Below are positions 24,613-43,620 of a stretch of DNA of 64,000 nt, one piece after another (positions within the stretch are counted from its first letter, which is position 1; each line of letters begins with the position of its first letter). The stretch is from Candidatus Nomurabacteria bacterium (lineage in GTDB: Bacteria > Patescibacteriota > Saccharimonadia > JAGOAT01). Position numbers and translations under genes: made by a program. The notes below the pieces were generated by a model. That model was given only the letters and a program-made list of their open reading frames with translations, was not told where the DNA came from and made no database searches. The stretch is taken from assembly GCA_020639315.1 (NCBI GenBank), contig JACKGM010000002.1, positions 286,321-350,320 of the forward strand. The letters are read 5' to 3'.

Positions 24613-24625
24613 TGGGTTTTTTGGA

Positions 24626-25651
24626 TCAATCTTCGCTAGAGTTTTGAGGCAATAAAGCTCGAGAATTACCGATCTGGATAGCTAGCTTATCATGATCTTT
24701 GATTGATGACTCAAAAGCTCGCTGAGCGTTACCAAGGTGCTTCCCTGTCAACTGTAAATTGTCCCCGAGCTTACCTGACTGCGTAGCAATTGCCGAAATC
24801 GAAGCAATAATCTGCTTGGCCTTCTCTTCTATCTTCTCTCCCTCCATAGCTAGTAGTACCGTTTGCAAAAAATAATAAAATGAGTTTGGTGACACCATAA
24901 ATACTCTCTGGTCCACCCCATATTGCTGCAAATCAGTATCACTCAAAATATGATAATAAATGTTTTCACTGGGAATATACATCATGGCAAAATCAACAGT
25001 CCCCTCATCAGGTAGGATATACTTTTTGGATATTGAACGGATATGCACTTTGACGTCTTTAGCAAAATCTTTCAAGCTCTGCCCCGAATCTCCAGAATCA
25101 GCCTTCATAGCCTTAGTAAAGTTTTCCAAAGGAAATTTGCTATCAATCGGGATTAATCCATTCTTGGTCCTGATCACTGCATCGACTTTGACCCCCGAAC
25201 GAAATCCGTATTGCAAACTAAAGCTCCTCAAGGGCAACATTTGCGTCAAAAGGTCTTTCATCACCTGCTCACCAATATTACCTCGCAGCTTTGGTGACCT
25301 CAAGAAGTCTTGCAATTCCTTCATATTGCGACCAATCTCACTAAACTTGCCGACTTCTCTACTCAGATCCGAGTAAGCTTTAGCAGCATTGTTAAGCCGA
25401 TCTTGCATTTGACGCTGATTATCTGCTATCGAACGGTTGATATTGTCCAAATCAGCCTTCAATAGATTGACGGTACTATCATTTCTAATCTGTTCTCTTA
25501 ATACCTCGATTGACTTGGATTGAAAAATCATCTGCCTCAACACCAACCCAACTATCCCGATCAAAACCACAATCAAGGCCAATACCAAAATCTCCATCTG
25601 CTTATTATAAATCATAAGCATTATTCCCCCAAATATTAACCCTGTTGCCAT
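24626..25651 (-). CDS. rmuC: DNA recombination protein RmuC
   Basis: N-terminal TM, coiled coil and C-terminal RmuC-type domain (AMMYIPSENIYY, VSPNSFYYFL). The first 14 nt of the track ORF lie inside the MITE-B TIR, so the true start is probably an internal Met (25621 to 25597). Confidence 0.8.
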   Translation of the reverse strand: MATGLIFGGIMLMIYNKQMEILVLALIVVLIGIVGLVLRQMIFQSKSIEVLREQIRNDSTVNLLKADLDNINRSIADNQRQMQDRLNNAAKAYSDLSREVGKFSEIGRNMKELQDFLRSPKLRGNIGEQVMKDLLTQMLPLRSFSLQYGFRSGVKVDAVIRTKNGLIPIDSKFPLENFTKAMKADSGDSGQSLKDFAKDVKVHIRSISKKYILPDEGTVDFAMMYIPSENIYYHILSDTDLQQYGVDQRVFMVSPNSFYYFLQTVLLAMEGEKIEEKAKQIIASISAIATQSGKLGDNLQLTGKHLGNAQRAFESSIKDHDKLAIQIGNSRALLPQNSSED

Positions 25652-25798
25652 ATAACCTCACGGCTTCAAAACTGCCATTTTTGCCCCAGACTAGCAAAAC
25701 ACTTCGCAGCGTAACTCCTGTTGTGCTTTGTCGTGTTTTGCTAGTCTGGAATAAAAATCATCAGCTTTGACCTCGCAAGTTTATATGGCAACAGGGTT
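25638..25798. mobile_element. MITE-B copy (161 bp, reverse orientation) between divergent rmuC and tyrS
   Basis: Same TIRs as the other copies. ATT/ATT TSD at 25635-25637 and 25799-25801. Confidence 0.85.
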
Positions 25799-25838
25799 AT
25801 TGAAAGAAACCTCATCAGATGATAAGCTTATATCAGAT

Positions 25839-27900: not shown

Positions 27901-27952
27901 TATAGCAAGCTCAAAACAAAACCGGACAATTTGAGCTGTACTATAGAGAACT
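27901..27952. mobile_element. truncated MITE-A (left ~50 bp only)
   Basis: TATAGCAAGCTCAAAACAAAACCGGACAATTTGAGCTGTACTATAGAGAACT is identical to the left arm of full copies, after which similarity is lost. Confidence 0.7.
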
Positions 27953-28063
27953 ATAGCCCCCGTAAAACAAAACCTGTTTGTTTTGGGTGATTAGATTATC
28001 GATCTAGAATTGTCGGATGCAAAAATCCTATTTATATCATGCTATAATTGCTATAATAAAATC

Positions 28064-29551: not shown

Positions 29552-29591
29552 TAGACTTGTCCACCAGAACGGAATTTTACAAAATCTTCAT

Positions 29592-29655
29592 TTCGGGGTC
29601 TGACCCCGAACCCGACCTATATAACAGATATAAATGGTCGGGGTCTGACCCCGAA
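29592..29655. repeat. REPIN-like doublet R5
   Basis: TTCGGGGTCTGACCCCGAA...AACAGATATAAA...TCGGGGTCTGACCCCGAAG. Confidence 0.85.
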
Positions 29656-29737
29656 GTAGGGGTTTTGGGGTGTTGCCAAAAGAAGAGAAAAAGATGATTT
29701 TAGCTTCAAATTACGCTATAATAGTCTAGGCATCTAT

Positions 29738-29814
29738 AGGGGTGTAGCTCAGTTGGCTAGAGCATCGGTCTCCAAAACCGAGGGCCGCGGGTTCGAATCC
29801 TGCCACCCCTGCCA
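29738..29814 (+). tRNA. tRNA-Trp (anticodon CCA), CCA end encoded
   Basis: The cloverleaf was folded by hand. Acceptor AGGGGTG/CACCCCT, anticodon arm TCGGT-CTCCAAA-ACCGA, T-loop GGTTCGAATCC. Confidence 0.95.
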
Positions 29815-29898: not shown

Positions 29899-29949
<51 letters not shown>

Positions 29950-29973
<24 letters not shown>

Positions 29974-30083
29974 TACAGAATTTCACACAATGCATTTGAT
30001 AATCTCAATCTAGACTAAATTCTACCTTGGGCTACTAGTCTCAATTTTAACTGAGTTTTGAGTTTACACAATTTAGTTTATAA
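29950..30083 (+). repeat. att-like repeat copy A (tRNA-Asn 3' end plus ~110 bp downstream)
   Basis: Homologous to 31721-31854. The 24 bp GTTCGAATCCTCTCCCCGGAGCCA are identical, and the downstream TTGATAATCTCAATCTAGACTA...GAGTTTACACAATTTAGTTTATAA is ~85-90% identical. Confidence 0.8.
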
Positions 30084-30361
30084 TCTCTGCCCTTGGGGTT
30101 TTAAGAGAATTTGAACAAAGGTTAAGTAAATCTTTACCAGAATTAGGCTTATCGTTGGTTTAGAGAAGCTACACTCTATTAAGACTTACAGTTTAAAATT
30201 ACCAGATGGCTCTACAGTACCCGTAGATACAGACTTAACAAAAACACAAAGTATCTTGATGAAGTTATCTAGGGCGTGATTTGGGTGACCTAAACCGTGA
30301 AGTCAGGAACATCGTCGCGCCCATTTTTTGTATATCTCTAGCTTTTAGCTATCGTCCATAG

Positions 30362-31414
30362 CTACTTCTTTTTATAGCGCGTTGTTCGTCCTTGACCAAT
30401 TCGTTCCACTTTTTTGATATCAAGCAACCTGTTGAGTGCCTGAGACACCGTTGCCCTGGCTACCCCAGTTTTATCTGCAATCTCACCTGGCATGGCTTCT
30501 TCAACAGTCTGCAGATAACGCCAGACCTTGATTTGCTGGGGCGACAGGGTTTTTTCTAGGTTTTCATTTTCAACCAGCTTTATTGCTTGCTGAGCCTGCT
30601 CTAAAAGAAGCCCCAGAAAATAGACAGTCCAGTCGTTTATAGAATCGTCTTCAGTGTCAAAGGTTGCTTGACTTCTTCGTAGTGCCAAATAGTAGTTTGA
30701 CTTACTTTGTTCGACTAGTTTCTCGTGTGAAACGTATGGGGTGTATTCATAGCCTCTAGACAAAAGCAAATAATTAGTTAGCAGCCTTGACATACGGCCG
30801 TTGCCATCTAAGAATGGGTGAATCTTTAGGAAAGATACAATAAAGTTGGATATGATCAACAAAGGATGGTATTTGTTCTCGTGTAGAGCTTCAGTGTACC
30901 AGTCTACAAGTTCTTGCATTTCTTTGGGGGTTAGATACGCGGGAGTAGTTTCAAAGATTACCGCCAAAATATTACCTTCAACATCAGTCATCTCTACCTT
31001 ATTTTCTAGGTTTTTGTATTCACCTTTGTGCCAAACATCTTTGCTGGAGTATTGCAGCAACTGAGCGTGTAAATATTTGATTGTATTTTCGCTAAAATCA
31101 ATCGATTTATGGTTATCAAAGATAAATTCTAGTGTTTCATAGTAGCCTTGAACTTCTTGGGTGTCTCTTTCTGAAAATTTCTGTATTTTGAGATTGTCTA
31201 TATATTCTTCAACATCAGTATCAGACATTTCTGAGCCTTCGATACGTGTTGAGGAGCCAGTCGAGGTAATCAACGTAGAGCGCTTTAATGTACCCAGAAT
31301 CTGCGGGTTTAAGTTTGTCTTTCCAGACCATCGTCCTTTTAACTCATCTATCTGAGCAACAAGATTAATAACTTCCTTGGGTAACTTTTCTATACGCTTG
31401 TCATTGCTATTCAT
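30362..31414 (-). CDS. Fic/DOC-family protein with C-terminal winged-helix DNA-binding domain
   Basis: Canonical Fic motif HPFLDGNGRMSRLL. The C-terminus GEIADKTGVARATVSQALNRLL is HTH-like. Confidence 0.9.
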   Translation of the reverse strand: MNSNDKRIEKLPKEVINLVAQIDELKGRWSGKTNLNPQILGTLKRSTLITSTGSSTRIEGSEMSDTDVEEYIDNLKIQKFSERDTQEVQGYYETLEFIFDNHKSIDFSENTIKYLHAQLLQYSSKDVWHKGEYKNLENKVEMTDVEGNILAVIFETTPAYLTPKEMQELVDWYTEALHENKYHPLLIISNFIVSFLKIHPFLDGNGRMSRLLTNYLLLSRGYEYTPYVSHEKLVEQSKSNYYLALRRSQATFDTEDDSINDWTVYFLGLLLEQAQQAIKLVENENLEKTLSPQQIKVWRYLQTVEEAMPGEIADKTGVARATVSQALNRLLDIKKVERIGQGRTTRYKKK

Positions 31415-31502
31415 AATCTAATATAGAGTATATATGAGATTATATTAGATTACAAGAGATTAACGCCAAAAAAACTTGATTAATCTACAAATGGAACTAA
31501 GA

Positions 31503-31686
31503 TATAGCAAGCTCAAAACAAAATCCAATTCCCTGACTAAGATAATAGAGAACCAGTAGTTGAGTTCTTCTACTGAATCATATCCATGATATGGTGAAGG
31601 AGAAAACTCAGTCTAATGGACTCTAGTGTCTAGTCAGGAATTGTGATTGATAGAAATATCTGATTTTGTTTTTAACTTGCTGTATA
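31503..31686. mobile_element. MITE-A subfamily-2 copy (184 bp), uninterrupted
   Basis: Ends are TATAGCAAGCTCAAAACAAAATC and GATTTTGTTTTTAACTTGCTGTATA. Collinear with the 50071-50419 copy except for the MITE-B insertion there. Confidence 0.8.
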
Positions 31687-31720
31687 AAAGCCATACAGAG
31701 GCAGGTTATCTATGCCAAAA

Positions 31721-31854
31721 GTTCGAATCCTCTCCCCGGAGCCAAGTTGAATTTTACAAAATACGGTTGATAATCTCAATCTAGACTAGATTCTACCCTA
31801 GACTACTAGTCTCAATTTTAACTGAGATTTGAGTTTACACAATTTAGTTTATAA
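31721..31854 (+). repeat. att-like repeat copy B (displaced 24-bp tRNA-Asn 3' end plus downstream homology)
   Basis: See copy A. It also shares 39 bp (GAGCCAAGTTGAATTTTACAAAATACGGTTGATAATCTC) with copy C at 38500. Confidence 0.8.
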
Positions 31855-31952
31855 CTCAGTTCTGTGATCTGAGGCGAAATTCATATGACCAATGTCATAA
31901 TTCATACTAGCAGGATTTGAGGAGGTGCGAAACTCGTGTACAATAATGTTAT

Positions 31953-32135
31953 ATGGCAAACGACAAACTACCAGAGTATCTAACACTAAGTGAAGGGAGT
32001 AAGATGCTAAAAGTGCATCCAAACACCCTATGCAACTGGGATAAGAGTGGTACGCTCAAGCACATTCGGATTGGCGAGCGTAAGATACGCCGATACAAAA
32101 AAGAAGATGTACTAAAGTTTTTGGAGCTGAATTAG
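31953..32135 (+). CDS. excisionase-family helix-turn-helix DNA-binding protein (HTH_17/MerR-like)
   Basis: 60 aa. LTLSEGSKMLKVHPNTLCNWDKSGTLKHIRIGERKIRRY is typical of Xis/AlpA-type HTH proteins. First gene of the island operon. Confidence 0.7.
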   Translation: MANDKLPEYLTLSEGSKMLKVHPNTLCNWDKSGTLKHIRIGERKIRRYKKEDVLKFLELN

Positions 32136-32795
32136 ATGCGATTGTTAAACCACCAACCTGGTGAGCTACAAGAGAAGCTATCTGAGTACCTCAAGAAAGA
32201 CGCACTTTATAAAGCAGTTTTTGAATACACAAAAAGCCGATTTGAAAAAGCAAACCATTTGCCAGCACATAATTGGTCACACGCTTACAGGGATACCTTG
32301 AATGCGATTGTTATAGGCGAAGCAGAAAATGCAGATATGGCTATTGTTTTGCCAGCGATAACTATGCACGATATTGGCTTCCTGTACGGTGCTAGTGGTA
32401 AAACACACGGGGCTGTCGGTGCTGACAAGCTGGCTGAATACCTAAAAGAAGGTAACATCCAGTATTCTGATGATGCCATTGAAAAAATCGCTGCCTGCAT
32501 ACGTACCCATAAAGGAAGTATGCACAATGAAAAACCTGAAAGCTTGGAGGCGAAAGTTGTCGCAGATGCAGATTTACTTGAGAAGTTTGGACCATTTGGC
32601 GTCTACCAGAATATACGTACATTTACTGAGTTTAATTGGGCATTAGAGAAAAACCTTGAGCGTGCAACACAGATATTCAACCTAACTCTTGAAACTGGAA
32701 CAGGTAGACGATTAGCAGAGCCTGGCAGAAAATTTGTAGCTAATTTCTACAACCAACTAGCGGAAGCTTATGAACCATATCAGGAGCAGGAGTGA
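32136..32795 (+). CDS. HD-domain phosphohydrolase
   Basis: H...HD pattern (HNWSHAYR ... ITMHDIGF ... RTHKG ... DADLLE). Confidence 0.7.
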   Translation: MRLLNHQPGELQEKLSEYLKKDALYKAVFEYTKSRFEKANHLPAHNWSHAYRDTLNAIVIGEAENADMAIVLPAITMHDIGFLYGASGKTHGAVGADKLAEYLKEGNIQYSDDAIEKIAACIRTHKGSMHNEKPESLEAKVVADADLLEKFGPFGVYQNIRTFTEFNWALEKNLERATQIFNLTLETGTGRRLAEPGRKFVANFYNQLAEAYEPYQEQE

Positions 32796-33274
32796 CCGAC
32801 GAAGACTTTATCAAACTAGCCATTCAAGCTGCTAAAGATGCTGAGGCATCAGGCGGTGCTGCGATTGGGGCGATAATGGTCAAAGACGGTAAGGTTATCG
32901 CAAAAGGTTGGAGTAACCCCTACGGTAAGCGTGACCCGTCAAATCACGGCGAGATTGACTGTATCCGCAATTGTGCCAAAGAGAACGACTTGATGGATAT
33001 GCAAGGATGTACTTTATATGGAACACTTGAGCCTTGCTCTATGTGTACTGGTGCGGCATTGTGGGCTGGAGTAGACAGAATAGTATTCGGTGCATATGCA
33101 GCCGATGTAGCTGGTAACGACTACGAATATGATGATTATAGTTCTGAAAAATTAGCAAAGACTTCAAGAAAGTTAGCCGACCCAAGCCGAGGCAACATTG
33201 AGGTTGTTGGCGGCGTACTACGTGATGAGTGCAAAGAACTGCTTAAAGACTACAAAGGTTGGCAGAAGCAATGA
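32792..33274 (+). CDS. CDA-fold nucleoside/nucleotide deaminase (TadA/guanine-deaminase-like)
   Basis: HGEIDCI (H[AG]E) and LEPCSMCTGA (PCxxC) zinc-binding motifs. GTGA overlap with the upstream gene. Confidence 0.85.
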   Translation: MTDEDFIKLAIQAAKDAEASGGAAIGAIMVKDGKVIAKGWSNPYGKRDPSNHGEIDCIRNCAKENDLMDMQGCTLYGTLEPCSMCTGAALWAGVDRIVFGAYAADVAGNDYEYDDYSSEKLAKTSRKLADPSRGNIEVVGGVLRDECKELLKDYKGWQKQ

Positions 33275-33849
33275 AAAATGCAATCCTAGTTCCTGGCAGA
33301 CCAGATAAAGACGAATACTACGACCCAAAGTATCCAACCAACAGTAATGGACACTGGTTTCCTTGGTTGTCAAAGCAGTTACAAATCAATGATGTGTTTG
33401 CCGTGGCTATTGAACCGCCAAAACCTTGGCAACCAAGATATGATGTTTGGAAAAAAGAGTTTGAAAAGTTTGATATTACGCCTGAAACTGTCTTGGTAGG
33501 TCATAGCTGTGGTGGTGGTTTCCTGGTTCGCTGGCTCAGCGAGAACAAGGACAAAAAGGTTGGCAAAGTCATATTGGTCGCTCCTTGGCTAAATCCAGAG
33601 AACAACCCTGTTTCTGACACGGCTGACTTCTTTGAGTTTGAGATTGACCCAGACTTGGTTAGCCGCACTGCTGGCGTGACTATCTTCAATTCCGACAACG
33701 ACCAAGCAACGATACACAAGTCCGTTCAAATCATTCGTGATGAAGTCAAAGATGTTAGCTACAAAGAGTTTCACGACTATGGTCACTTCTGTTTTGAGGA
33801 TATGAACACCGAGGAGTTTCCTGAGCTAGCTGAGGAAGCGATAAAGTGA
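33271..33849 (+). CDS. alpha/beta serine hydrolase, YdeN/RBBP9-like
   Basis: ILVPGRPDKDEYYD...WFPWL...LVGHSCGGGF...ILVAPW. The start is placed at the ATGA overlap (33271) rather than the track TTG at 33259. Confidence 0.55.
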   Translation: MKNAILVPGRPDKDEYYDPKYPTNSNGHWFPWLSKQLQINDVFAVAIEPPKPWQPRYDVWKKEFEKFDITPETVLVGHSCGGGFLVRWLSENKDKKVGKVILVAPWLNPENNPVSDTADFFEFEIDPDLVSRTAGVTIFNSDNDQATIHKSVQIIRDEVKDVSYKEFHDYGHFCFEDMNTEEFPELAEEAIK

Positions 33850-34961
33850 GTGAGCAAATGACGAACCTTGATATGGAAAAAATCAATGCAGGTATAGCCG
33901 ATAGAACGGATGTTTTCTACTGGCAGACAGACCGTGCTGTTGACCCAGTCGAAGCTGGACATATCTGGGCAGACAGACACAGATACTTTACTGACAGTGA
34001 GCTGGTTGAGCGAGTAAACACGGCATTAAGTGACGCTAAACTAGCTGGTATTGAGCCACTGGACTTAGATGCTCAGACCAACCTAGGTAACGTAAACTCT
34101 GTTCGTGTAGGAACACTTGTGTCTGGTAAAGAAGTAATCTTGCGATGCCATCCAAAAGGTGTACGCAACGGTTATTTCCACGCCGAGGCAGCCGCATCAC
34201 ATCTTGCAAAAGAAACTGGCTTACCAAGCTACGATACGCTTGCTGTTCACGATTACGAGAACGGCGAAGACTTTGCCTTCCACGTCCTGGAAAAACTCTC
34301 AGGCACAGCTATCAAGAAGTGGCTTGAAGCTCATCCTGATGACGAAGCAGCCTTATTGCCTCAAATTGGCAGGATGATGGCACGACTACATCAAGTAAAA
34401 GTTGATGGTTTTGGACCATTTGATAATGAATGTGCTAAAACTGGTGAGCTTGTTGGGCTACACAAGACATTCGGCGAGGCAGTACGAGCTGGTTTGCCGT
34501 TTAATCTAGATGTATTGCAGAAAGAGGGCGTACTGACTGACGAGCAAACATCTGCCATTACTAAGTTGTTTGGCGACGACAATCCTTTGCTTACACTTGA
34601 ACAAGGTGTCTTGGTTCATAATGATTTTGCTGACTGGAACTTGCTGACTGACGGCAAAGACGTGACAGGTATTTTGGACTGGGACGAATGTGTGTCTGGT
34701 GATGCCGTTAGCGACATTGCTTGTTGGAGTACGTTCTTTGACCCTGAGCGATTAGAGGGTTTCTTGGAAGGCTATTGGCAGGTTGCGGATAAGCCATCCG
34801 ACTTCCAAGACAGGTTTGAGCTACTACGCTTACGATACGTGTTGTCTAAGATGACACTTCGTTTACGTCGCTATACCTGGGAACAAACTGACTTTATGCG
34901 TGAAAAAATTGAAACGGGTAAAGTACACTTGGCTCAATCAATGGAGTACTTTGGGATATGA
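33846..34961 (+). CDS. aminoglycoside-phosphotransferase (APH)/choline-kinase-family small-molecule kinase
   Basis: Brenner motif VLVHNDFADWNLL followed by GILDWDE. Size 371 aa. Confidence 0.75.
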   Translation: MSEQMTNLDMEKINAGIADRTDVFYWQTDRAVDPVEAGHIWADRHRYFTDSELVERVNTALSDAKLAGIEPLDLDAQTNLGNVNSVRVGTLVSGKEVILRCHPKGVRNGYFHAEAAASHLAKETGLPSYDTLAVHDYENGEDFAFHVLEKLSGTAIKKWLEAHPDDEAALLPQIGRMMARLHQVKVDGFGPFDNECAKTGELVGLHKTFGEAVRAGLPFNLDVLQKEGVLTDEQTSAITKLFGDDNPLLTLEQGVLVHNDFADWNLLTDGKDVTGILDWDECVSGDAVSDIACWSTFFDPERLEGFLEGYWQVADKPSDFQDRFELLRLRYVLSKMTLRLRRYTWEQTDFMREKIETGKVHLAQSMEYFGI

Positions 34962-35503
34962 AATTATACAGATTTAGTCCAATAGAGAATAAGGCGAGCC
35001 TGATAGAAGCCGTCAAATATACACACTTTGCCTGTTATGAACTTTGTAAGCAATCCTTTGGCTCATACTTACCTAACGCAGGTAATATGGGCATCTTTTG
35101 CCATTACGACGATGAATTTGAACAGCTTGTAACAATCCGCAAGGAACTGACAGAACCCTCTGATGACCCAAATCAGAAGTATTTCAAGCTACACGAACCG
35201 ATTGTTGTGCCTGAGCAAGATGGCGTACCAGAAACAACCTACACACATTTGTACATCCGAAAGCCAGACCCATATCGTCATCACGTTGGCGATGTTGATT
35301 TTTATCTTGAGCAACAGCAATACGATGAGCTGAAACAGTCGCTCATTGACGGCAAGCAAGTAAAGGGTGCAAGAGTATTCCCACGCAATGACCTGGATAT
35401 GGTTGAACTTTATGACCCTGATGTTGATGCACTTGGCTATGTAAGCACCAACACAATGACCGAGAAAGTAAGAATAAAACTATCTGACGAAACAAAACTA
35501 TGA
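34958..35503 (+). CDS. hypothetical protein (181 aa)
   Basis: ORF with ATGA overlaps at both ends. No motif recognised. Confidence 0.5.
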   Translation: MKLYRFSPIENKASLIEAVKYTHFACYELCKQSFGSYLPNAGNMGIFCHYDDEFEQLVTIRKELTEPSDDPNQKYFKLHEPIVVPEQDGVPETTYTHLYIRKPDPYRHHVGDVDFYLEQQQYDELKQSLIDGKQVKGARVFPRNDLDMVELYDPDVDALGYVSTNTMTEKVRIKLSDETKL

Positions 35504-36390
35504 GTAAGATTGCCGTAATTGCTGATGTACACCTTTTGCCTGAAACTCAGGAATTGATTAGCCAGTTATCCGCAACTACACTCGCTTTTCCGTCACAAGA
35601 CACTCAGCCAAGTGCTGATGAGCTTATTGAACGTACTGCGGATGCAGATGCCGTGTTAGTTAGCCCAGGAACTAAAATTACCGAGGAATATCTTAGTTCC
35701 TGTCCGTCCGTTAAATACATAGGCATTTGTGGTACTTCAAAGGAAAATGTTGACCTAGATGCTGTTGAAAAACGGCACATTACTCTTACGAACGTAGTTG
35801 ATTACGGCGATGAGCCAGCAGCTGAGTTTATCTTTATGCAACTTGAATACCTTGTCAGAGGTATGGGTCAGAACCAATGGAAAGATTATCCAACTGAGCT
35901 TATGGGCAAGAAAATGGGAATTATCGGCTTAGGTGCTTTAGGCACAGCTATTGCAAACCTGGCTCTGGCATACAAAATGGATGTTTCTTATCACAGCAAA
36001 ACGAGGAGGCCAGAGCAAGAACAACTTGGAGTTTCATATTCTGAAAAAGATGAGCTACTAAAAACCTGCCAAATCATCGTAATCTGCACACCTAGCAACC
36101 TTGTTGCAATTTCCAAGGACGATTTTGAACTTATTCAGTCCAATGTCATCATCGTTCAGGCAAGTATGGGTATGTGCCTAGACCAAGGAGCATTTCTTGA
36201 TTGGATAAAACAAGATAGCAACTTTGCATTGTTTGACTACTCGGCTGGTAACGAAAGCTACGAAGCCTACAAAGATTTACCAAGAGTTATTTTCCCTAAG
36301 GTTATCGCTGGTCACACTCAAGAAACCAAACAAAGACTTGGCGATAAAGTAATTCAAAACCTCAAGAAATATCTTGAAGGAAATGTATGA
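35500..36390 (+). CDS. D-isomer-specific 2-hydroxyacid dehydrogenase family protein
   Basis: NAD-binding GIIGLGALGTAIA (GxGxxG) and the overall two-domain layout. Confidence 0.75.
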   Translation: MSKIAVIADVHLLPETQELISQLSATTLAFPSQDTQPSADELIERTADADAVLVSPGTKITEEYLSSCPSVKYIGICGTSKENVDLDAVEKRHITLTNVVDYGDEPAAEFIFMQLEYLVRGMGQNQWKDYPTELMGKKMGIIGLGALGTAIANLALAYKMDVSYHSKTRRPEQEQLGVSYSEKDELLKTCQIIVICTPSNLVAISKDDFELIQSNVIIVQASMGMCLDQGAFLDWIKQDSNFALFDYSAGNESYEAYKDLPRVIFPKVIAGHTQETKQRLGDKVIQNLKKYLEGNV

Positions 36391-37049
36391 GCAAGCACGT
36401 AGTAATCTATTCACACGGTTTTGGTGTTCGCAAAGACGATAGAGGCTTGTTTACTGATATTGCCGATGCCATACCAGAAGCAAACCACGTGATGTTTGAC
36501 TACAACCACGTTGATGAGCGAGCAAATACGCTCACAGTCAGCCCATTACAAGAGCAAGTTCAAAAGCTCAGAGAGCAGCTTGAAAAGATTGAGGGTGATG
36601 CAATTATTGACGTTGTGGCACACTCCCAAGGTTGCCTCATAGCAGCACTTGCGAAACCACAGAATGTTCGGCAGATACTATGCCTTGCACCGCCAGATAA
36701 TGTGGACACCGAACGGCTAATCAACTTCTTCGGAAACCGTGAAGGTAGTATCGTTGATTTGGAAGGTCAATCACGAATACCCAGATGTGACGGCACTACA
36801 ACCATCATCCCTTCTGCATATTGGCAGAGCTTAAAGGGACTTGATGCCATTCGCTTATACAATCGCTTACCAGACTTAGCTAAGGTTAAGTTCGTAATTG
36901 CCAATGACGATGAAGTGCTTGGTATGAGCAATTTTGACAATACTGACGAACGCATTGAATTAGCTCAACTAGACGGCAGTCACGATTTTACAGATGAAGC
37001 TAGACAACCATTGGTTGATTTGGTTAGAAACGAGCTACTGAATGCCTGA
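36387..37049 (+). CDS. alpha/beta hydrolase
   Basis: VIYSHGFG (oxyanion region) and VAHSQGC (nucleophile elbow). A late GSHDF supplies the candidate His. Confidence 0.6.
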   Translation: MSKHVVIYSHGFGVRKDDRGLFTDIADAIPEANHVMFDYNHVDERANTLTVSPLQEQVQKLREQLEKIEGDAIIDVVAHSQGCLIAALAKPQNVRQILCLAPPDNVDTERLINFFGNREGSIVDLEGQSRIPRCDGTTTIIPSAYWQSLKGLDAIRLYNRLPDLAKVKFVIANDDEVLGMSNFDNTDERIELAQLDGSHDFTDEARQPLVDLVRNELLNA

Positions 37050-37422
37050 TGCGAAACAAAAGTTTGAAGTACGTAATTCCAGTATTTCAGGGAAAGGCTT
37101 GTTTGCTACGACATTGATTAAAGCAAGTGAAGCCGTTATTTCCTGGCATCCAAAAGTACTGACACGTGAAGAAGCTGATGCCTTACCATCATCCGAGCAT
37201 CACTATCTTTATCCTGATGGCGACAAGATGCTGTATATGCAAGCACCTGAGCGGTTTATGAACCATTCTTGCGAGCCTAATACGCACGTTGTCGGCAAAA
37301 GCGATGTTGCTATACGTGATATTGAACCTGGTGAAGAAATAACCTCAGACTATATGGACTTAGAAACTGAGAACTTTATTTGTCATTGTGGTTTAGAAAA
37401 TTGTAGGGGCAAGAAAAAGTGA
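37042..37422 (+). CDS. SET-domain methyltransferase with post-SET Cys cluster
   Basis: GKGLFA, FMNHSCEPN, GEEITSDY and C-terminal CHCGLENCRG. Confidence 0.9.
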   Translation: MPDAKQKFEVRNSSISGKGLFATTLIKASEAVISWHPKVLTREEADALPSSEHHYLYPDGDKMLYMQAPERFMNHSCEPNTHVVGKSDVAIRDIEPGEEITSDYMDLETENFICHCGLENCRGKKK

Positions 37423-37431
37423 GTATATGAT

Positions 37432-38166
37432 ATGGAAAATGAATCAAACATAAAGATTAACCTTACTCAAAATCCTGACAGCAATAAAAAGCATAGACTT
37501 CTATGCGCAAGTTGTCGTAGGAAAACAAATCACACTACCCAGCAATCGTTAAGACGGGGATGGGAAACAGATGATAGCCATATAGCTGGTTACGACGATT
37601 TTCTTATTGTGAAATGCGATGGCTGCGAAACGGTACAGTTCTGCCAAATATCATCCTGCTCGGAATATTATTATAGTGCCGAAAACCCACAAACAGGCGA
37701 GATGGAAACATATTATAGTGAGAAAATTGACCAATATCCTGCGGTTAACACTTCTTATGAGAAACCAAGCACATTCCACAGTATGCCGAGCGAGATTAAA
37801 GACGCCTGTGCCGAAACCTACTCAGCTTTATGTGGCGACTTACCCAAGCTCGGAGCGGCTGGCACAAGATTGATAATTGAAACCTTGTGCCTAGTAAATA
37901 ACATTGGAAACGGCAATCTTAAGCAGAAAATCAACGCCTTGGCTAAAAAAGGTGTAATCACTGGCTCAATGAGGACAATGCTGCACAAGGTTAGGCTATT
38001 TGGGAACGACAAACTGCATACAACTGCAACCCCCAAGAAGGTTGACCTTGAGCAAGCTTGGAGTGCAGTCTGTAATTTACTTCGTTCGGTCTATGGCACA
38101 AAAGACACGACAGCCTATTTCAAGGCTTTTAGTCAAGATAAAGTAAAACCAAAGGCAGACAAATAG
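37432..38166 (+). CDS. zinc-ribbon plus DUF4145-like protein
   Basis: N-terminal CASCRRKTNH...CDGCETVQFC. The C-terminus IIETLCLVNNIG...LAKKGVITGSMRTMLHKVRLFGNDKLH resembles the DUF4145 helical domain. Confidence 0.5.
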   Translation: MENESNIKINLTQNPDSNKKHRLLCASCRRKTNHTTQQSLRRGWETDDSHIAGYDDFLIVKCDGCETVQFCQISSCSEYYYSAENPQTGEMETYYSEKIDQYPAVNTSYEKPSTFHSMPSEIKDACAETYSALCGDLPKLGAAGTRLIIETLCLVNNIGNGNLKQKINALAKKGVITGSMRTMLHKVRLFGNDKLHTTATPKKVDLEQAWSAVCNLLRSVYGTKDTTAYFKAFSQDKVKPKADK

Positions 38167-38260
38167 CTAGCCGACGAAAAACGCTTGGTAATTCTGCTCC
38201 CACAAATTAGGGATATATACGGCGGAGTGCTATTTTGGCAGAACTAAGGGCGACCACCCC

Positions 38261-38416
38261 CTAGGTATAGCTGTCAAAATCAAACGGTTCAAACTCAGGT
38301 AATTCAAGCTCAGGGAAAGGTTCAAGCTCAAGCATTACAGCCTCAAAATCTAAACTCACAAACTCTAAGTGCAAATCAGGAAGCTCCAACATTTCAAGTT
38401 CAGGAAGGTCTATCAT
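38261..38416 (-). CDS. possible 51-aa highly acidic repeat peptide (MIDLPELEMLELPDLHLEFVSLDFEAVMLELEPFPELELPEFEPFDFDSYT)
   Basis: Hand-translated ORF below the track's apparent ~60-aa size floor. Weak SD. Could be fortuitous. Confidence 0.2.
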   Translation of the reverse strand: MIDLPELEMLELPDLHLEFVSLDFEAVMLELEPFPELELPEFEPFDFDSYT

Positions 38417-38499
38417 ACTGCAACCAGTAGTTCCTTCATGGCATTTAACTTATACTCATCATAGTCCGCACTAGCAGTTCGCAACGTGTCCGCTACTGC

Positions 38500-38538
38500 G
38501 AGCCAAGTTGAATTTTACAAAATACGGTTGATAATCTC
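38500..38538 (+). repeat. att-like repeat copy C (39 bp)
   Basis: GAGCCAAGTTGAATTTTACAAAATACGGTTGATAATCTC is identical to 31739-31777. Confidence 0.75.
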
Positions 38539-38666
38539 CGATAATGGTAACTTTGAGGATCTTAAAACTAGGTTTGTTGTCAACCTAAACTTTAGGTCTT
38601 TTAGATACCGTATATAATACAAACAGATGGACGGTTTTGTTTTGAGTATGCTATACAACTTAGGGC

Positions 38667-39770
38667 TTATATGTTTTCGGCAGGTATATGTCCACCCTGC
38701 ACTGTGGTACTCCTAGCCTCATCCACTGTGTGCTGCCATCTATTCACAGCATTCTCCAGTGAGAGTAAGCTACGGTCTACTACATTCAATACCTTAGCTT
38801 GCCCTTCATCTACAAGTCTACTTTCTAGGATTAAGCGGTATTGTTGCAATATCTGCAGAATAGCCTTTTTTAGCTCTAATAACCCAGCCTCACCACCACT
38901 AACCTCTTGAGGATAATCGGGACTATCGTGGGAACCGAGATATTCTAGCCATACAACTGAACCTATTAGATCCTCTTCAAGCCCACCTATGCGATCCATG
39001 TTGGCCCCATAGTCAACTATTCCGAAACCCTCCAGGGGATCGTATAGGACATTTGAAAGTTTATGATCAATTGCAATACCGTTTTTATTAGCAATCTCTA
39101 TAGTATCTACAAGTCTAGATAACTGTTCACTAGTTATGCTTCTAACCTCATCAAGCGTCAACTCCCAAATCTCTCTACCCGGTATTATTTCAGCTATAGT
39201 AACACCCTCTACATATGAAGCAGCTATTATCTGCTCTAGATGATGAATACCCTTACCCAACACAGCACCTTCTAGGTTAATATCTATTGTCGAAGCATCA
39301 GTATTATTATCCCCATATGGCAATCTGACAGCATATGTCTTATCATCTAGCGTTATTGAAAAGACTACAGAGTTTCCCCCTCTGCCCAAGAAGCCAGGGT
39401 GATTTTCGGGCTTATCAATAGTAAGTAGTTCTTGCCTTAAGGTATCTACAGAGGATGCAAAATAGTCATATGCTTCTAGCATTGCAAGGCGACCCTTAAT
39501 GGGTTCATACTCATAACCACCTACTGAATGCAAAAAATCACTATAATCGTCTGGATCTACAGGTAACGATTCTGCTACAGCCCTATTCGGCCCGTGACTT
39601 AATCCAATACCTACCCCATGACCCAACGCCAATCGGGCAATCTCGTGGAAAAACCTTATTCTCTCGCCCCAGTCAGTAACTTTCTCAGCAAAGAAAGTTG
39701 CCATAGCGGCTTGATCTCCTAAGGCGTGACCCCTTACATTATCGTGATTCCTAGTAGCGTCTTCAGACAT
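38667..39770 (-). CDS. protein-kinase-like fold protein (atypical)
   Basis: GGNSVVFSI...YAVRLP (P-loop/Lys region), IAIDHKLSNVLY (catalytic-loop-like D-x-K-x-x-N) and IVDYG (DFG-like). Confidence 0.45.
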   Translation of the reverse strand: MSEDATRNHDNVRGHALGDQAAMATFFAEKVTDWGERIRFFHEIARLALGHGVGIGLSHGPNRAVAESLPVDPDDYSDFLHSVGGYEYEPIKGRLAMLEAYDYFASSVDTLRQELLTIDKPENHPGFLGRGGNSVVFSITLDDKTYAVRLPYGDNNTDASTIDINLEGAVLGKGIHHLEQIIAASYVEGVTIAEIIPGREIWELTLDEVRSITSEQLSRLVDTIEIANKNGIAIDHKLSNVLYDPLEGFGIVDYGANMDRIGGLEEDLIGSVVWLEYLGSHDSPDYPQEVSGGEAGLLELKKAILQILQQYRLILESRLVDEGQAKVLNVVDRSLLSLENAVNRWQHTVDEARSTTVQGGHIPAENI

Positions 39771-39993
39771 TGTATTTTTTTATTTTTTTTAATCCTATAA
39801 CAGTACTATAATAATAATGTATCCTGTGGTCAATGCAACGATCAATATACATCTAGTACTGTAATGATTTGTCCCCCTCCCCAAATCACAAACACCTTGT
39901 CTATTCTCTAGGTATATCTCCAATTATATCCGAAATATCAACGAGAAAGGGCTTGATTGAGATTAAATTGAAGTTTTTTGTTATACTTGATTT

Positions 39994-40461
39994 ATGACTA
40001 AAACGGTTATCACAATTTGCTCAAGTGCAGCCTTCTATAGACAAGCAGTAGAAATACAAGACCAACTCAGCAGGCTTGGTGTCGAGGTTATAGTACCCAA
40101 AACAGCAACACGGATGAAAGAGTCTGATGATTTTGATGTTAGTCACTACAAAACATGGTTTGCCGATGCAAATGACTACCACAAAAAAGCAGAGCTCATG
40201 CGTGCTCACTTTGAGGAGATAGAGAAAAGCAATGCGATTCTTGTCCTAAATTATGAAAAGCACGGTGTCGATAACTATATAGGCGGTAATGTGCTGATGG
40301 AGATGGCCTTAGCATTTTGGCTTAAAAAGCCAATATTTATCATGAATGGACTTCCCGAAAAATCAGCATTTGAAGAAGAGATTAAAGGTATGGAACCGAT
40401 TCTATTACACGGTGATGCTAATGCTCTACCTAAACTTTATGAAGAAATAATCAGCATGTAG
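39994..40461 (+). CDS. nucleoside 2-deoxyribosyltransferase-like superfamily protein (tentative)
   Basis: 155 aa. The flavodoxin-like pattern ITICSSAAF...ILVLNYEKHGVDNYIGGNVLMEMALAFWLKKPIFI resembles NDT-like/YtoQ-like proteins. Confidence 0.35.
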   Translation: MTKTVITICSSAAFYRQAVEIQDQLSRLGVEVIVPKTATRMKESDDFDVSHYKTWFADANDYHKKAELMRAHFEEIEKSNAILVLNYEKHGVDNYIGGNVLMEMALAFWLKKPIFIMNGLPEKSAFEEEIKGMEPILLHGDANALPKLYEEIISM

Positions 40462-41007
40462 ATGGAAGAGCTTTGGCAACTCTACGACAAACAAGGTCGA
40501 GCAATAAGTAGCAAAGGGGCTACAAAAGACGATGTCTTTAATAATGGCCTACTTCATAGTTCATCGCATGTATGGATCTGGCGGGCAAGAGAAAATCAAC
40601 GAGAAATCTTGCTTCAGCAACGTGCTTCCGATAAGCATATATGGCCTAACCGTTTTGATACTTCGGCAGCTGGACATATAGATTTAGATGAAAAACCACT
40701 TGATGCAGCTATACGTGAAATAGCTGAAGAGATTGGACTTACAATAGTAGGTGATGAGCTAAACTTATTCTGTGTGCATCGAACCTATCTAAAAGCTGAA
40801 AATGGTTCGATAGAAAACGAATTCCAGTGGCTCTATAGCCTAGAGCTTACTAATAAAACTGACTTTGTTCTACAGCCCACAGAAGTAAAGTCACTAAAAT
40901 GGATACCACTTGAGCAGTTCAAAGCAGAAAACAAAAGCGAGCAATATCTTCCCCACGGTGAACTATACTACAATACAGTTGTATCTGCCATAGAGTCTGC
41001 TGAATAA
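40462..41007 (+). CDS. NUDIX hydrolase
   Basis: Nudix box GHIDLDEKPLDAAIREIAEEIGL. Confidence 0.85.
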   Translation: MEELWQLYDKQGRAISSKGATKDDVFNNGLLHSSSHVWIWRARENQREILLQQRASDKHIWPNRFDTSAAGHIDLDEKPLDAAIREIAEEIGLTIVGDELNLFCVHRTYLKAENGSIENEFQWLYSLELTNKTDFVLQPTEVKSLKWIPLEQFKAENKSEQYLPHGELYYNTVVSAIESAE

Positions 41008-41086
41008 TAATTAGACAGTACTACTCGAGTCTAGAACCCTTACAACTTTGTTTTTTACTTGGGTTGCATGATAAGATACTGTCATA

Positions 41087-41200
41087 ATGGATACAAGGGT
41101 AGACAGACTATCATCGCTTGAGCAAGTAGGCGAGCTACTTCAAGTGTACCCTAGTCCCCTGCGAAACTGGGATAAAGACAGAACACTCAGACCAATTTGA
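41087..41200 (+). pseudogene. truncated excisionase-like HTH gene (38 codons then TGA)
   Basis: Hand translation gives MDTRVDRLSSLEQVGELLQVYPSPLRNWDKDRTLRPI*. This parallels LTLSEGSKMLKVHPNTLCNWDKSGTLKHIRIG of the 31953 gene but stops early. Confidence 0.5.
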
Positions 41201-41263
41201 CTTAGTGGACAAAAATACGGCGGTATTAAGTATAATTAGATATTAAAGGAGTTAAGTGGAACA

Positions 41264-41671
41264 ATGAACAAAGATTTTATCAAAGATATTATACCTAGGG
41301 GCTACAAAACTAGAGGTAGCTATACTCCAGCTAATAAAATTGACCTGGGCAGTCATTATCTAATATTTGTGTCTGGCGTACAAGCACCGAAAAATGACGA
41401 CCACAGCGTAGTCACAGACGATATTGAAGAACAAACTAAATTTGTGTTTGAGGATATTATTAAGATTTTACAGCTGGCAGACGCAACAATTGATGATGTA
41501 GTAAAAGCGGTCATATACATTACCGATATAGACGACTTTGACAAAATATCTGCCATTAGAGGTGAGTATTTCAAGAATCCAATGCCAGTTAGTACATTGA
41601 TTGAGGTTAATCGTATGAATAGGGATGGTGCAAAGATAGAAATAGAAGTAACTGCGGTGGTAAAAAAGTGA
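41264..41671 (+). CDS. RidA/YjgF/L-PSP family protein
   Basis: 135 aa. LIFVSGVQAP...TKFVFEDIIKILQLADATIDDVVKAVIYI...PVSTLIEV...KIEIEVTA. Confidence 0.8.
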   Translation: MNKDFIKDIIPRGYKTRGSYTPANKIDLGSHYLIFVSGVQAPKNDDHSVVTDDIEEQTKFVFEDIIKILQLADATIDDVVKAVIYITDIDDFDKISAIRGEYFKNPMPVSTLIEVNRMNRDGAKIEIEVTAVVKK

Positions 41672-42258
41672 TTATTTACCTTACCAGACACGGGCAAACA
41701 ACTGGCGATATTGAAAACCGTTATGGTGGCGACTACGATGACCACTTAACTGATATAGGCAAGCAACAGTCTGCACAGTTGGCTGAACGATTATCAAATA
41801 AAGGTATTGGTCTACTTTTTGCTAGTCCGCTCATTAGGACAAAAGAAACCGCTACAGTGATAGCTGAGAGGCTGAGTCTTGTAACAAATATCTTTGATGA
41901 TTTTAGAGAACGCAACAGCTACGGTATTTTGACTGGAATGACCAAAGACGAAGCATTGCAAAAATATCCTGATCAAATACAAATACTGAAAGATGTTCGC
42001 GCTACGGTTGAAGGTGCTGAAGAGTATGCGTCGTTTCAGCAACGCATCATCAATGCTCTAGCGACTATTAGCCAGGAGCAGGTAGATAGGATTGCAATAG
42101 TAACACACGGTGGACCAATGCGCCTTATATTTAGAGATATTCTTGAACTGGGTGAGATTGATGTGGATGACTGTGCATTTGCCGTCCTTGAAGCAGATAA
42201 CGATACGTATACCCTACTAGATAAAAGTGGTATTACCATAAAGAAACAACTATCCTAA
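41668..42258 (+). CDS. histidine phosphatase (phosphoglycerate-mutase-like) family protein
   Basis: IYLTRHGQT catalytic motif, SPLIRTKETA, VTHGGPMR. Confidence 0.85.
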   Translation: MIIYLTRHGQTTGDIENRYGGDYDDHLTDIGKQQSAQLAERLSNKGIGLLFASPLIRTKETATVIAERLSLVTNIFDDFRERNSYGILTGMTKDEALQKYPDQIQILKDVRATVEGAEEYASFQQRIINALATISQEQVDRIAIVTHGGPMRLIFRDILELGEIDVDDCAFAVLEADNDTYTLLDKSGITIKKQLS

Positions 42259-42349
42259 ATTTTACCCATTACTAGGACACTCGTCCAACATTAATCCTTT
42301 CTCGTAAGCATATTGTATTACTAATCAAGATGGGTTACACTACTGGTAC

Positions 42350-43138
42350 ATGTCAGAAAATTTCAATGGGTATACTCCTGAACAAGGACCTAGTGGTATC
42401 GTTGCTATGTATCAAGATGCTACATCTGATCCTGATCGAGATCTCCCTAGCCATACTATCTTACCCCCCAATATGTGTTTTGCACTATTTAGCACCATAC
42501 TAAGGGAAAAGCAAATATCTCGTACTGGCACATATGACTATGATAGCGAGCCTCCTACAATATCCCGAGAAGCTACGGAAGATACCCATCAATATCTTGC
42601 AGAATTTTGCGAGACTAATTGCGACAGCGGGTGTGCAGTTACCCAGGCTTATAGCGATCAAGAAATACGCGAGCGATTATCGTTATCGGGTTTTCGTATT
42701 GTTCATGATAACCCAGATACGGTTACTCAGGCAGATGCTATTACCGACGCCCTAATCAGCTACTTTCAAGGTATACTGACACCCGATGAAGAACCAGATG
42801 AGTATTCATATATTCAGGGTGAGAGTTTCCTGCGGAGACTTTACAAACAAGTATGCGACGGGCTGACCACAGCAATTACTCCAGAGGTAGACGGTAATAC
42901 CTTAGCCGGTTTGATGGTAATATGTATATCCAATATACAAATATTTAAAGATATCCTAAGAAAAGTTATTATAAAAAATATGCCAAATTCAGAAGATAAA
43001 GTACCCTTAGAAATAACTCCTGCAATGATCATAGATTACTTACTAACTATGCCTCAAGATGATAGTAACGCATACTGCCTCAAAGTTACACCTAGGGGTA
43101 GTACTTTCGGGTTTCCTATCTCCCTATATAATGAGTAG
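42350..43138 (+). CDS. hypothetical protein (262 aa)
   Basis: ORF only. No motif recognised. Confidence 0.45.
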   Translation: MSENFNGYTPEQGPSGIVAMYQDATSDPDRDLPSHTILPPNMCFALFSTILREKQISRTGTYDYDSEPPTISREATEDTHQYLAEFCETNCDSGCAVTQAYSDQEIRERLSLSGFRIVHDNPDTVTQADAITDALISYFQGILTPDEEPDEYSYIQGESFLRRLYKQVCDGLTTAITPEVDGNTLAGLMVICISNIQIFKDILRKVIIKNMPNSEDKVPLEITPAMIIDYLLTMPQDDSNAYCLKVTPRGSTFGFPISLYNE

Positions 43139-43359
43139 GTGTCTAAGCCCATGCTCTAAACTATACTACTCTAGTCTAGAACCTTTACAACCTGGTCTTA
43201 AGGTATCAAAAGACTGCAATCGCCAAATCATTACAGATACTACTGTGGAGCAACCAAGGCCTATAACCAGAAACGCTACCTTAATAGATAGAGATAACTA
43301 CTAAATCTAATGGCTAAAGGAATAATATATCTAATGACATCAGCGGTATCGGGCTTGGT

Positions 43360-43523
43360 TATAGCAAGTTAAAAACAAAACCAGCCTTTTGACCCAACTC
43401 TAGAGTCTATAAAGCTAGTTTTCTTACTCACCATATCTATGGATATGGCTCTTAAGAAGAACTACCTTTCTAGTTCTCTATAGTACAGCTCAAATTGTCC
43501 GGTTTTGTTTTTAACTTGCTATA
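43360..43523. mobile_element. MITE-A copy (164 bp, reverse orientation)
   Basis: Reverse complement is ~95% identical by eye to 9673-9836. It directly abuts REPIN R6. Confidence 0.8.
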
Positions 43524-43589: not shown

Positions 43590-43620
43590 AAGAAGGTGGC
43601 TACCATCAAGCCCGACAACC

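Follow-up and report, generated by a model that had tools for sequence, protein, structure and literature searches.

A probable decayed tandem array at a tRNA-Asn gene and the serine recombinase element family of Saccharibacteria to which it points

The question raised by the 64,000-nucleotide (nt) stretch of contig JACKGM010000002.1 analyzed here (the window, in whose coordinates all positions are given) is what reiterated the 3' end of its tRNA-Asn(GTT) gene, behind which direct repeats bound two segments, E1 (29974-31720, 1.75 kb) and E2 (31745-38505, 6.7 kb). The region is probably a decayed tandem array at the attachment (att) site of an element family of Saccharibacteria that carries a large serine recombinase (LSR) and a replication protein (Rep). 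At its right end, E2 matches the P arm of intact elements at about 90% identity, and the match stops at the hexamer GAGCCA, as in the attP of circular forms and in the attR at tRNA-Asn, which points to an origin from this family. The first-pass annotation had proposed site-specific integration at the tRNA-Asn 3' end with subsequent loss of the integration genes, and for E2 this stands. The tyrosine type of integrase that is usual at tRNAs was not borne out for E2, as the last 33 codons in the window are those of an LSR.

Repeats behind tRNA-Asn and a recombinase remnant in E2

The LSR codons at the right end of E2 (NSTWLAVADTLRTASADYDEYKLNAMKELLVAV) are read on the reverse strand and form the P arm of attR. 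The encoded peptide matches the C-terminal 33 amino acids (aa) of the LSR of L055, a relative described below, in 26/33 positions (79%), and the remnant ends at the core GAGCCA at 38500-38505. At the DNA level, 38394-38505 was 90% identical to the relative L133 and 38391-38508 was 89% identical to L131, all of these matches ending at the core. L055 shares 38176-38516 with the window; the two sequences are near-identical up to GTCCGCTACTGCGAGCCAA and diverge within a few bases after GAGCCAA. Farther left, 38177-38266 was 92% identical to L133 DNA and falls in a right-end block kept among the relatives although the adjoining cargo differs. An apparent extension of LSR homology to the right of the third repeat copy, as far as 38583, was rejected as alignment drift across a stop codon.

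When the window was searched with the backbone proteins of L055 using tblastn, the 33-codon LSR tail was found alone, with no Rep, 317-aa gene or remaining LSR. On this sequence evidence, E2 is a backbone-less derivative with a canonical attR, not a functional family member. No tyrosine or serine recombinase domain was detected in 43 scanned window open reading frames (ORFs) of at least 150 aa, a scan that left out a 2265-aa ORF (13438-20235) and a 210-aa ORF nested in it. The earlier statement that the window holds no integrase is accordingly right for intact genes and wrong for the 33-codon remnant (38416-38514, reverse strand). Transposase genes of IS30-like (48747-49862) and Y1/IS200-like (12329-12979) type lie elsewhere in the window.

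The repeats themselves were found much as first described. An exact copy of the final 24 nt of tRNA-Asn lies at 31721-31744, with 0 such copies expected in shuffled sequences, and the region behind the tRNA is homologous in an ungapped 134-nt alignment of 29950-30083 with 31721-31854 (90% identity). Copies 1 and 2 agree in 24/24 positions of the tRNA end, 24/33 of the next 33 nt and 72/77 of the following 77 nt, a block of copy 2 that is 94% identical to the copy-1 arm. The third copy is exact over 39 nt, GAGCCAAGTTGAATTTTACAAAATACGGTTGATAATCTC being present at 31739-31777 and 38500-38538, and its 33-nt part occurs in the window in just these two places (0 expected). The segments are bounded, in sum, by direct repeats including the tRNA 3' end with lengths of 24 nt (exact), 39 nt (exact) and 134 nt (90%). 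E1 begins one base past the end of tRNA-Asn, which serves as the B side of attB with its 3' terminus GAGCCA (29968-29973) as the predicted crossover core, and a degenerate T-arm-like stretch, GTTCGcaacgtgTCCgCTaCtgcGAGCCA, lies upstream of copy 3. Self-comparison of the window found the att repeats at three sites only and kept them distinct from its families of miniature inverted-repeat transposable elements (MITEs) and repetitive extragenic palindromic (REP) units, which speaks against a dispersed repeat.

The 11-mer AGCCATACAGA, the sequence found where tRNA and arm meet in copy 1, repeats at 29969 and 31689 as reported and also lies at 10539 on the reverse strand, within a gene of the tRNA-synt_1b family (3 occurrences in the window versus 0.04 expected). 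It is weaker evidence than the first-pass annotation took it for, and the copy at 31689 is possibly an att remnant. Two other readings of the repeats were dropped: the 77-nt arm has no diverged counterpart in the right flank of copy 3, as 290 and 318 of 500 shuffles scored at least as high as the real alignment, and the 33-nt repeat is not a mere promoter, promoter and terminator scans being at chance level. No structured RNA was found in the arms or the right-end block by Rfam or folding.

Gene content was as annotated, with a Fic gene in E1 and an excisionase-like gene plus nine further ORFs in E2 (Table 1). The label excisionase-like holds as far as the HTH_17 domain goes; the gene is the conserved head of the cargo operon in every member of the element family, occupies the same position in L131-L136, and encodes a protein 88% and 81% identical to those of L055 and L145, respectively. 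It may act as a regulator or a directionality factor. The cargo ORFs encode, in order, an HD protein, a dCMP/cytidine deaminase, a serine hydrolase, an APH-family kinase, a 181-aa unknown protein, a 2-hydroxyacid dehydrogenase, an alpha/beta hydrolase, and SET and DUF4145 proteins, and individual genes of this set reappear in other elements in shuffled combinations. MITE-A is a later, unrelated insertion in E1, and a second copy of it, itself split by another MITE, lies at 50070-50421.

In the assembly L140 (GCA_020428505.1), which shows one mismatch to the window over 9,136 nt, the DUF4145 gene at 6043-6507 (corresponding to 37432-38166) was called at 154 aa versus 244 aa, and the shorter call could reflect a truncating mutation or another choice of start.

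No phage structural, packaging or lysis genes were found in 29974-38538 with Pfam and PHROGs. A prophage remnant was rejected on the lack of phage genes in the segments and of the core pattern and arms in viral contigs, and an integron cassette array was rejected because no integrase was found and the overlapping or abutting cargo leaves no space for attC-type repeats.

Table 1. Features at and around the tRNA-Asn gene, in window coordinates
Feature	Position	Strand	Evidence or remark
tRNA-Trp	29738-29814	+	ARAGORN
tRNA-Asn(GTT)	29899-29973	+	ARAGORN; Rfam tRNA 72 bits
Copy-1 arm (33 nt + 77 nt), directly behind tRNA-Asn	29974-30083	+	Alignment
Fic/SoFic-like gene, C-terminal winged helix-turn-helix	30362-31414	-	Pfam Fic 3e-17; PADLOC SoFic 4.9e-40; PHROG 5978 1e-47
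MITE-A with terminal inverted repeats	31501-31687	.	Window self-comparison
11-mer AGCCATACAGA, same as tRNA/arm junction of copy 1	31689-31699	+	
Copy 2: 24-nt tRNA-Asn end + 33 nt + 77 nt	31721-31854	+	Repeat alignment
HTH_17 (MerR/excisionase-family) gene, 60 aa	31953-32135	+	Pfam HTH_17 4.8e-10
Nine co-directional cargo ORFs, mostly overlapping or abutting	32136-38166	+	
Conserved right-end block of the element family	38176-38266	.	Aligns with L131 and L133 at 84-92% identity, and with L055
Small acidic ORF, 51 aa	38261-38416	-	Intact in the window though the LSR is gone
LSR gene remnant, last 33 codons, P arm of attR	38416-38514	-	tblastn with L055 LSR, E 9e-12
Copy 3: core GAGCCA + 33-nt right flank (B'), same as in copy 2	38500-38538	+	Exact repeat
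Solitary sequence like the MITE-A terminal repeat (75% direct, 90% inverted)	38635-38658		97 nt right of copy 3

The element family and its attachment sites

The APH kinase of E2 has hundreds of homologues (67-92% identity) in Saccharibacteria contigs, where it stands in very diverse neighbourhoods, often a few kb from tRNA genes. One of these contigs, L055 (MWVW01000449.1), shares with the window the APH kinase (87%) in addition to the HTH_17 gene and the right end. Its 172-nt terminal overlap closes a circle of about 9.19 kb with a contiguous attP, which encodes a 532-aa LSR, a Phage_CRI-type Rep, a SpoVG-like protein and a 316-aa protein and, divergently, HTH_17 and cargo. Another contig, L145, is likewise circular (253-nt overlap with one mismatch); it has the backbone of L055, an unbroken attP and other cargo, and the full-length LSRs of the two measure 531-532 aa. 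Intact relatives are about 8-10 kb long; two are circular and three independent ones lie beside tRNA-Asn. Their backbone consists of a 317-aa protein, a 42-aa ORF, a SpoVG-like protein, a rolling-circle Rep of Phage_CRI type and the LSR, and the HTH_17-led operon with its exchangeable cargo runs divergent from it.

The family recombinase is classed as a large serine recombinase, with predicted catalysis, by Pfam scores of 45.0 (Resolvase), 55.8 (Recombinase) and 28.8 bits (Zn_ribbon_recom), all above the curated cut-offs, and by an N-terminal catalytic-serine motif, ARVSDPSQ (RVS). A phmmer search of the LSR against PDB returned no relative at E ≤ 1e-3. There were 877 LSR homologues at E < 1e-20, and in the best 120 cluster representatives 100 tails were of the tRNA-antisense type (WLxxxxSN) and 13 of attP type (three types), so that the family is abundant and most of these best 120 are apparently integrated. 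Jointly with the reading of the window as a decayed array, the family is judged likely to comprise small elements of Saccharibacteria that are both integrative and replicative. No description of it was found in the literature searched, nor were mobile elements of this type found there for Saccharibacteria, which are ultra-small epibionts with reduced genomes.

Cargo of the relatives included a complete Gabija pair (GajA 2e-213 and GajB 1e-127), type II restriction-modification together with a Drt6/Drt4-like reverse transcriptase, and, in others, HAD, AKR, NUDIX and GNAT enzymes or ALDH, APH and DUF3800 proteins. The family thus moves Gabija, restriction-modification, defense-associated reverse transcriptase and enzyme cassettes to one defined site, the 3' end of tRNA-Asn, and such delivery explains a variable accessory region of these genomes. 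An LSR whose attB is short, conserved and part of an essential tRNA could also become an integration tool for genetically intractable organisms. The interest of the locus lies in the element family it reveals, more than in the decayed island itself.

In L133/L134 and L135/L136, whose LSRs are 86% and 54% identical to that of L055, respectively, the 3' end of the LSR gene overlaps tRNA-Asn on the opposite strand, and a canonical P' arm lies behind tRNA-Asn in L008. The far end of L133 is the P arm that is 90% identical to the window, followed by a terminator-like chromosomal flank, and its attL and attR have GAGCCA alone in common. This hexamer, the tRNA 3' terminus, is the sole sequence common to attP, attB, attL and attR of the family. 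P arms end in GTCCGCTACTGC or are of other types, the canonical P' arm, ATTT(T/G)(G/T)A(C/G)T.TT.G..., begins with ATTTTGACTTTTAG, and the B' arms are mutually unrelated. The LSR reading frame passes through the attP core, where Trp-Leu is encoded by TGGCTC, the antisense of GAGCCA. After integration, the tRNA is intact, and in the LSR a tail read from the antisense strand of the tRNA replaces the last ~30 codons. The arrangement of these sites suggests that the LSR catalyzes integration at GAGCCA.

Use of the tRNA-Asn site by more than one element, as the first-pass annotation had supposed, was seen in a sister population. L142 (Logan, SRR28385527) is 100% identical to window 29967-35103 over 5,137 nt, and upstream of GGAGCCA it carries 75 nt that are not in the window. 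With the shared GGAGCCA included, this gives an 82-nt stretch that matches the left arm of the L144 attP at 92.7% identity as far as the core; the LSR of L144 is 62% identical to that of L055. By its sequence, L142, a contig from another sample of the source organism, holds another LSR element between tRNA-Asn and E1. It is seen in addition to E1 and E2, which L142 matches as far as 35103. The joining of a foreign P arm at GGAGCCA indicates that the junction of tRNA and arm acts as attB, with the copy-1 arm as its B' side, and that the site is still in use.

A small acidic ORF rich in Leu, Glu and Pro (33-69 aa) was noted in the window (38261-38416, reverse strand), L055, L131 and L145. In the L055 subfamily, this ORF begins with an ATG that overlaps the stop codon of the LSR (ATGA), which couples the two in the circular form only.

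A second and distant LSR clade, 21% identical to the LSR of L055, was observed in L053 (13575-15263), L059 (2429-4369), L062 (2015-3871) and L064 (2135-3823). Its genes lie beside tRNA-Pro or tRNA-Arg(CCG), and here, too, the ORF extends into the tRNA in antisense direction. In 3/4 of these loci the APH kinase is the next gene upstream of the LSR, and L062 has a minimal HTH_17-X-APH-LSR unit of about 3.8 kb. The APH kinase may be more than passive cargo.

Competing histories of the array

The decayed array would have begun with the integration of a full element at GAGCCA through LSR recombination; subsequent loss of the backbone would have left E2, which was presumably once a complete element. 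By another route, a backbone-less derivative may have entered by recombination within the 39-nt identity, or loss of the backbone may have been followed by recombination within att-region homology. Backbone-less circles may also have entered by a single crossover in 39-134 nt. Before insertion, the empty site would read CCTCTCCCCGGAGCCA, AGTTGAATTTTACAAAATACGGTTGATAATCTC and CGATAATGGTAAC in direct succession, and insertion of a family member would join tRNA-Asn to the P' arm as GGAGCCA followed by ATTTTGAG. The junction of an E2 circle would read P arm, the 39 nt and then AATCTAGACTAG, and that of an E1 circle GCCAAAAGTTCGAATCCTCTCCCCGGAGCCA joined to TACAGAATTT.

Several observations weigh against this history. 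The left border of E2 is without the ATTTTGACTTTTAG P' arm and consists of 33 nt equal to the copy-3 flank, followed by the 77 nt shared with copy 1; judged by these arms, simple LSR integration is not its source. No canonical P' arm was found on the right side of copy 1 or copy 2. Copy 2 is a mosaic and an attB-like site, not a canonical attL, and its first 57 nt resemble an attB without an insertion, provided that the native B' side is the one to the right of copy 3. Because attL and attR of intact relatives have just GAGCCA in common, the 24-, 39- and 134-nt repeats are not the footprint of this recombinase. E1 contains no recombinase and gave no tblastn match to the L055 backbone proteins. 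The GC scan that had been suggested as a check gave a small shift, 0.42-0.47 in E2 versus 0.38-0.41 in the flanks. The activity of the LSR, the exact crossover dinucleotide and circularity are all deduced from sequence. Finally, no empty tRNA-Asn site or close relative was found in genome, metagenome and viral collections, so that insertion was not directly observed for E1 or E2.

In these searches, the degenerate 29-nt core pattern had no match in viral contigs or JGI metagenome contigs, and the patterns of the P arm, the right-end block and the 77-nt arm had none in viral contigs. The 25-mer of the tRNA-Asn 3' end occurred at 44 loci of GTDB genomes (Saccharibacteria and Ilumatobacteraceae), none of them syntenic with the window; the Saccharibacteria among them share the tRNA alone with it and mostly have a terminator-like hairpin directly after tRNA-Asn. 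The 513-aa protein of the left flank is an orphan whose sole match was its own record, H6792_03330, and exact-protein look-ups (ZIP, 367-aa, Fic and HD) returned the window arrangement only, except for L142.

Since the left border of E2 is attB-like and not attL-like, the LSR can probably no longer excise E2. E1, the other module without an integrase, may have originated by site-specific integration; it would have been added through recombination within the 24-134 nt of att-region homology or by a different tRNA-Asn-specific (tyrosine) integrase. Serial integration, as first proposed, has support where E2 and the repeated use of the site are concerned and is tentative for E1, which is without any LSR-family hallmark.

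The most serious alternative, to which a minor though substantial probability is given, is that homologous (Campbell-type) recombination or natural transformation brought in the backbone-less modules by way of 39-134 nt of att-region homology, without an LSR in cis or in trans. Repeats of 39 nt (exact) and 134 nt (90%) are what a single crossover between circle and chromosome is expected to leave, and copy 2 is a mosaic of copy-3 and copy-1 types. The left border of E2 is attB-like, and pairing of such a site with attR is not expected from established LSR biology. Against this, 39 nt is short for RecA-dependent recombination, no circular E1 or E2 was seen, and all borders coincide exactly with GAGCCA, which fits site-specific recombination equally well. 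Homologous entry moreover covers the last step only, and the descent of E2 from the LSR family is still required.

An unlikely explanation is that these are classical tRNA islands of a tyrosine integrase whose gene was lost after a 24-nt duplication, with E1, E2 or both unrelated to the LSR family. Tyrosine integrases usually leave direct repeats of the tRNA 3' end that start at the T-loop, and the perfect 24-nt repeat has this form, whereas the attL/attR pairs of the LSR family have just 6 nt in common. A Phage_integrase gene is present in one related cargo locus, L053. In L132, a 25-nt tRNA-end fragment stands left of an intact LSR element; it can be counted for the tyrosine type and indicates that tRNA-end fragments recur in such arrays. 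A similarity of the B' flank of L132 to the window arms past ~30 nt was not robust. For E2, the tyrosine origin is opposed by the right end, which is a canonical P arm with LSR coding sequence that ends at GAGCCA, and no tyrosine recombinase gene or fragment was present in the scanned window. For E1, such an origin is conceivable.

That the region has no mobile history, the repeats having arisen when the tRNA 3' end was duplicated locally, along with the sequence downstream of it, in an ancestral, vertically inherited gene order, is highly improbable. Three things would fit such an order: composition shifts little, the APH kinase is well conserved and found very widely among Saccharibacteria, and an empty site was not found. 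On the other side, part of an LSR gene is preserved at the right end of E2, which matches the attP of circles and the attR of integrants. The APH gene has different neighbours in nearly all genomes, the 513-aa gene in the flank is an orphan, and occupancy of the junction is polymorphic. A misjoin at the repeats during assembly or binning, conceivable for a metagenome-assembled genome with several public contigs that break at or near the repeats, is the least credible explanation of all, as independent assemblies from different samples reproduce copy 1 (L138), copy 2 (L142 and L140) and copy 3 (L001, L003, L140 and L141) at 99.96-100% identity, L138, L142 and L140/L141/L001 spanning the respective junctions.

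Under the preferred reading of a decayed array of the LSR family, the feature in the window is the ordinary end state of such elements, with decayed and probably immobile cargo. A more speculative extension, given low confidence, is that the family represents undescribed integrative rolling-circle episomes found throughout Saccharibacteria, in which the tail swap and the uncoupling of the mini-ORF form a direction switch, and that the units in the window have this switch module deleted. Such episomes would shuttle defense systems and small-enzyme cargo, with an LSR that contains its own attP. Integration at the CCA end of tRNA-Asn would replace the C-terminal ~30 residues of the LSR with the tRNA-antisense tail and uncouple the translationally coupled acidic mini-ORF, whereby the direction of recombination would be set. 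The tail swap would then have a regulatory role.

Neighbouring features and known systems

To the right of copy 3, the region 38539-43350 looks accessory, with a kinase-like 367-aa and a 155-aa ORF without family matches, NUDIX, RidA and His_Phos genes and a 262-aa unknown ORF. A MITE/REP pair marks its end, and the region may be a third island that is older. The 367-aa ORF was considered as a hidden integrase and rejected, as it is kinase-like and had no Pfam, NCBIfam, PHROG or PADLOC match. In L037, tRNA-Asn is only about 4 kb away from homologues (65-69% identical) of the genes beyond 43350, MsrA and its neighbour.

The Y1 (IS200-like, RAYT-like) transposase gene at 12329-12979 is flanked by palindromic REP-like units of 62-74 nt. 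Such units were located at 11411-11489, 12139-12207, 13041-13114, 24547-24624, 29584-29668, 43525-43595, 53419-53487 and 56503-56568, and one lies just upstream of tRNA-Trp. A palindromic MITE-like family of about 165 nt has copies that are 96-98% identical at 9673-9842, 9987-10158, 25637-25799, 43354-43523, 50110-50282 and 58728-58890, with a partial copy at 27901-27953; one copy lies inside the second MITE-A (50070-50421), beside the IS30-like transposase gene (48747-49862). The 2265-aa ORF at 13438-20235 on the reverse strand contains many internal diverged tandem-repeat copies (64-78% between offset copies).

The tRNA-Asn of two further Saccharibacteria is split by a group I intron (Rfam RF00028, 93-101 bits), namely, at L031 5179-5419 and L052 29-260 (equal to L051 at about 8586-8817), and in L051 the intron-bearing tRNA-Asn is followed by NUDIX and APH kinase genes. 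In L053, the last 18 nt of tRNA-Arg(TCT) (3812-3829) are repeated exactly 153 nt downstream (3965-3982). In an observation made on P0001 (28010-29551) and homologues across the window, the tRNA-Asn sequence and named APH-kinase homologues point to Saccharibacteria/Saccharimonadales as the source of the window, which bears the NCBI label 'Candidatus Nomurabacteria bacterium'.

The closest concept among known systems is the three-step sequence of integration, decay to a cis-mobilizable element (CIME) and accretion described for integrative and conjugative elements (ICEs) and integrative and mobilizable elements (IMEs), for example, the ICESt1-related elements of Streptococcus thermophilus (PMC5704250); the tycheposon arrays of Prochlorococcus are also close. 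Like CIME and accretion arrays, the locus has insertion at the 3' end of a conserved gene, lost integration genes, att-like borders that were kept, and tandem units. CIMEs and ICEs mostly involve tyrosine integrases, identical att cores at both borders and conjugation, whereas the parent family of the window has an LSR, a 6-nt core, a rolling-circle Rep and no conjugation genes. A strict CIME retains both attL and attR; in E2, attR is canonical and the left border is attB-like, so CIME status is not shown.

The staphylococcal cassette chromosome (SCC) and its pseudo-SCC forms are the nearest serine recombinase analogue, compared here by description. Ccr LSRs insert SCC cargo at the 3' end of rlmH (orfX) without inactivating it, composite tandem arrays are frequent, and many units are without a recombinase. 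Unlike the family described here, SCC targets rlmH and not a tRNA, has no such replication module and has its att site outside the recombinase gene.

With tycheposons, likewise compared by description, the family shares small cargo elements with integrase and replication genes, tRNA targets, a streamlined host, stacking with partial tRNAs and degenerate remnants. Of 937 tycheposons, 910 have tyrosine recombinases, and primases or helicases serve for replication (bioRxiv 10.1101/2020.12.28.424599). The elements of Saccharibacteria differ from them in the rolling-circle Rep, the serine recombinase and the host phylum.

The family LSR resembles the integrases of phiC31, Bxb1, A118/LI and TP901-1 in its Resolvase, Recombinase and zinc ribbon domains and in a short attP/attB core with unrelated arms. 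To our knowledge, no characterized phage-type large serine integrase targets a tRNA 3' terminus. IMEs with serine recombinases typically insert inside genes and disrupt them (PMC5704250). An att site inside the integrase ORF is reported for the 'suicidal' integrases of SSV type, which are tyrosine recombinases and reported from archaea only (PMC8371274), and bacterial precedents are conceivable beyond the literature searched. As in SSV integrases, the att site of the family LSR lies in its own reading frame, and integration alters the gene. The SSV gene is split in the middle, whereas the bacterial LSR loses its last ~30 codons, gains a tRNA-antisense tail and keeps its catalytic and DNA-binding domains intact.

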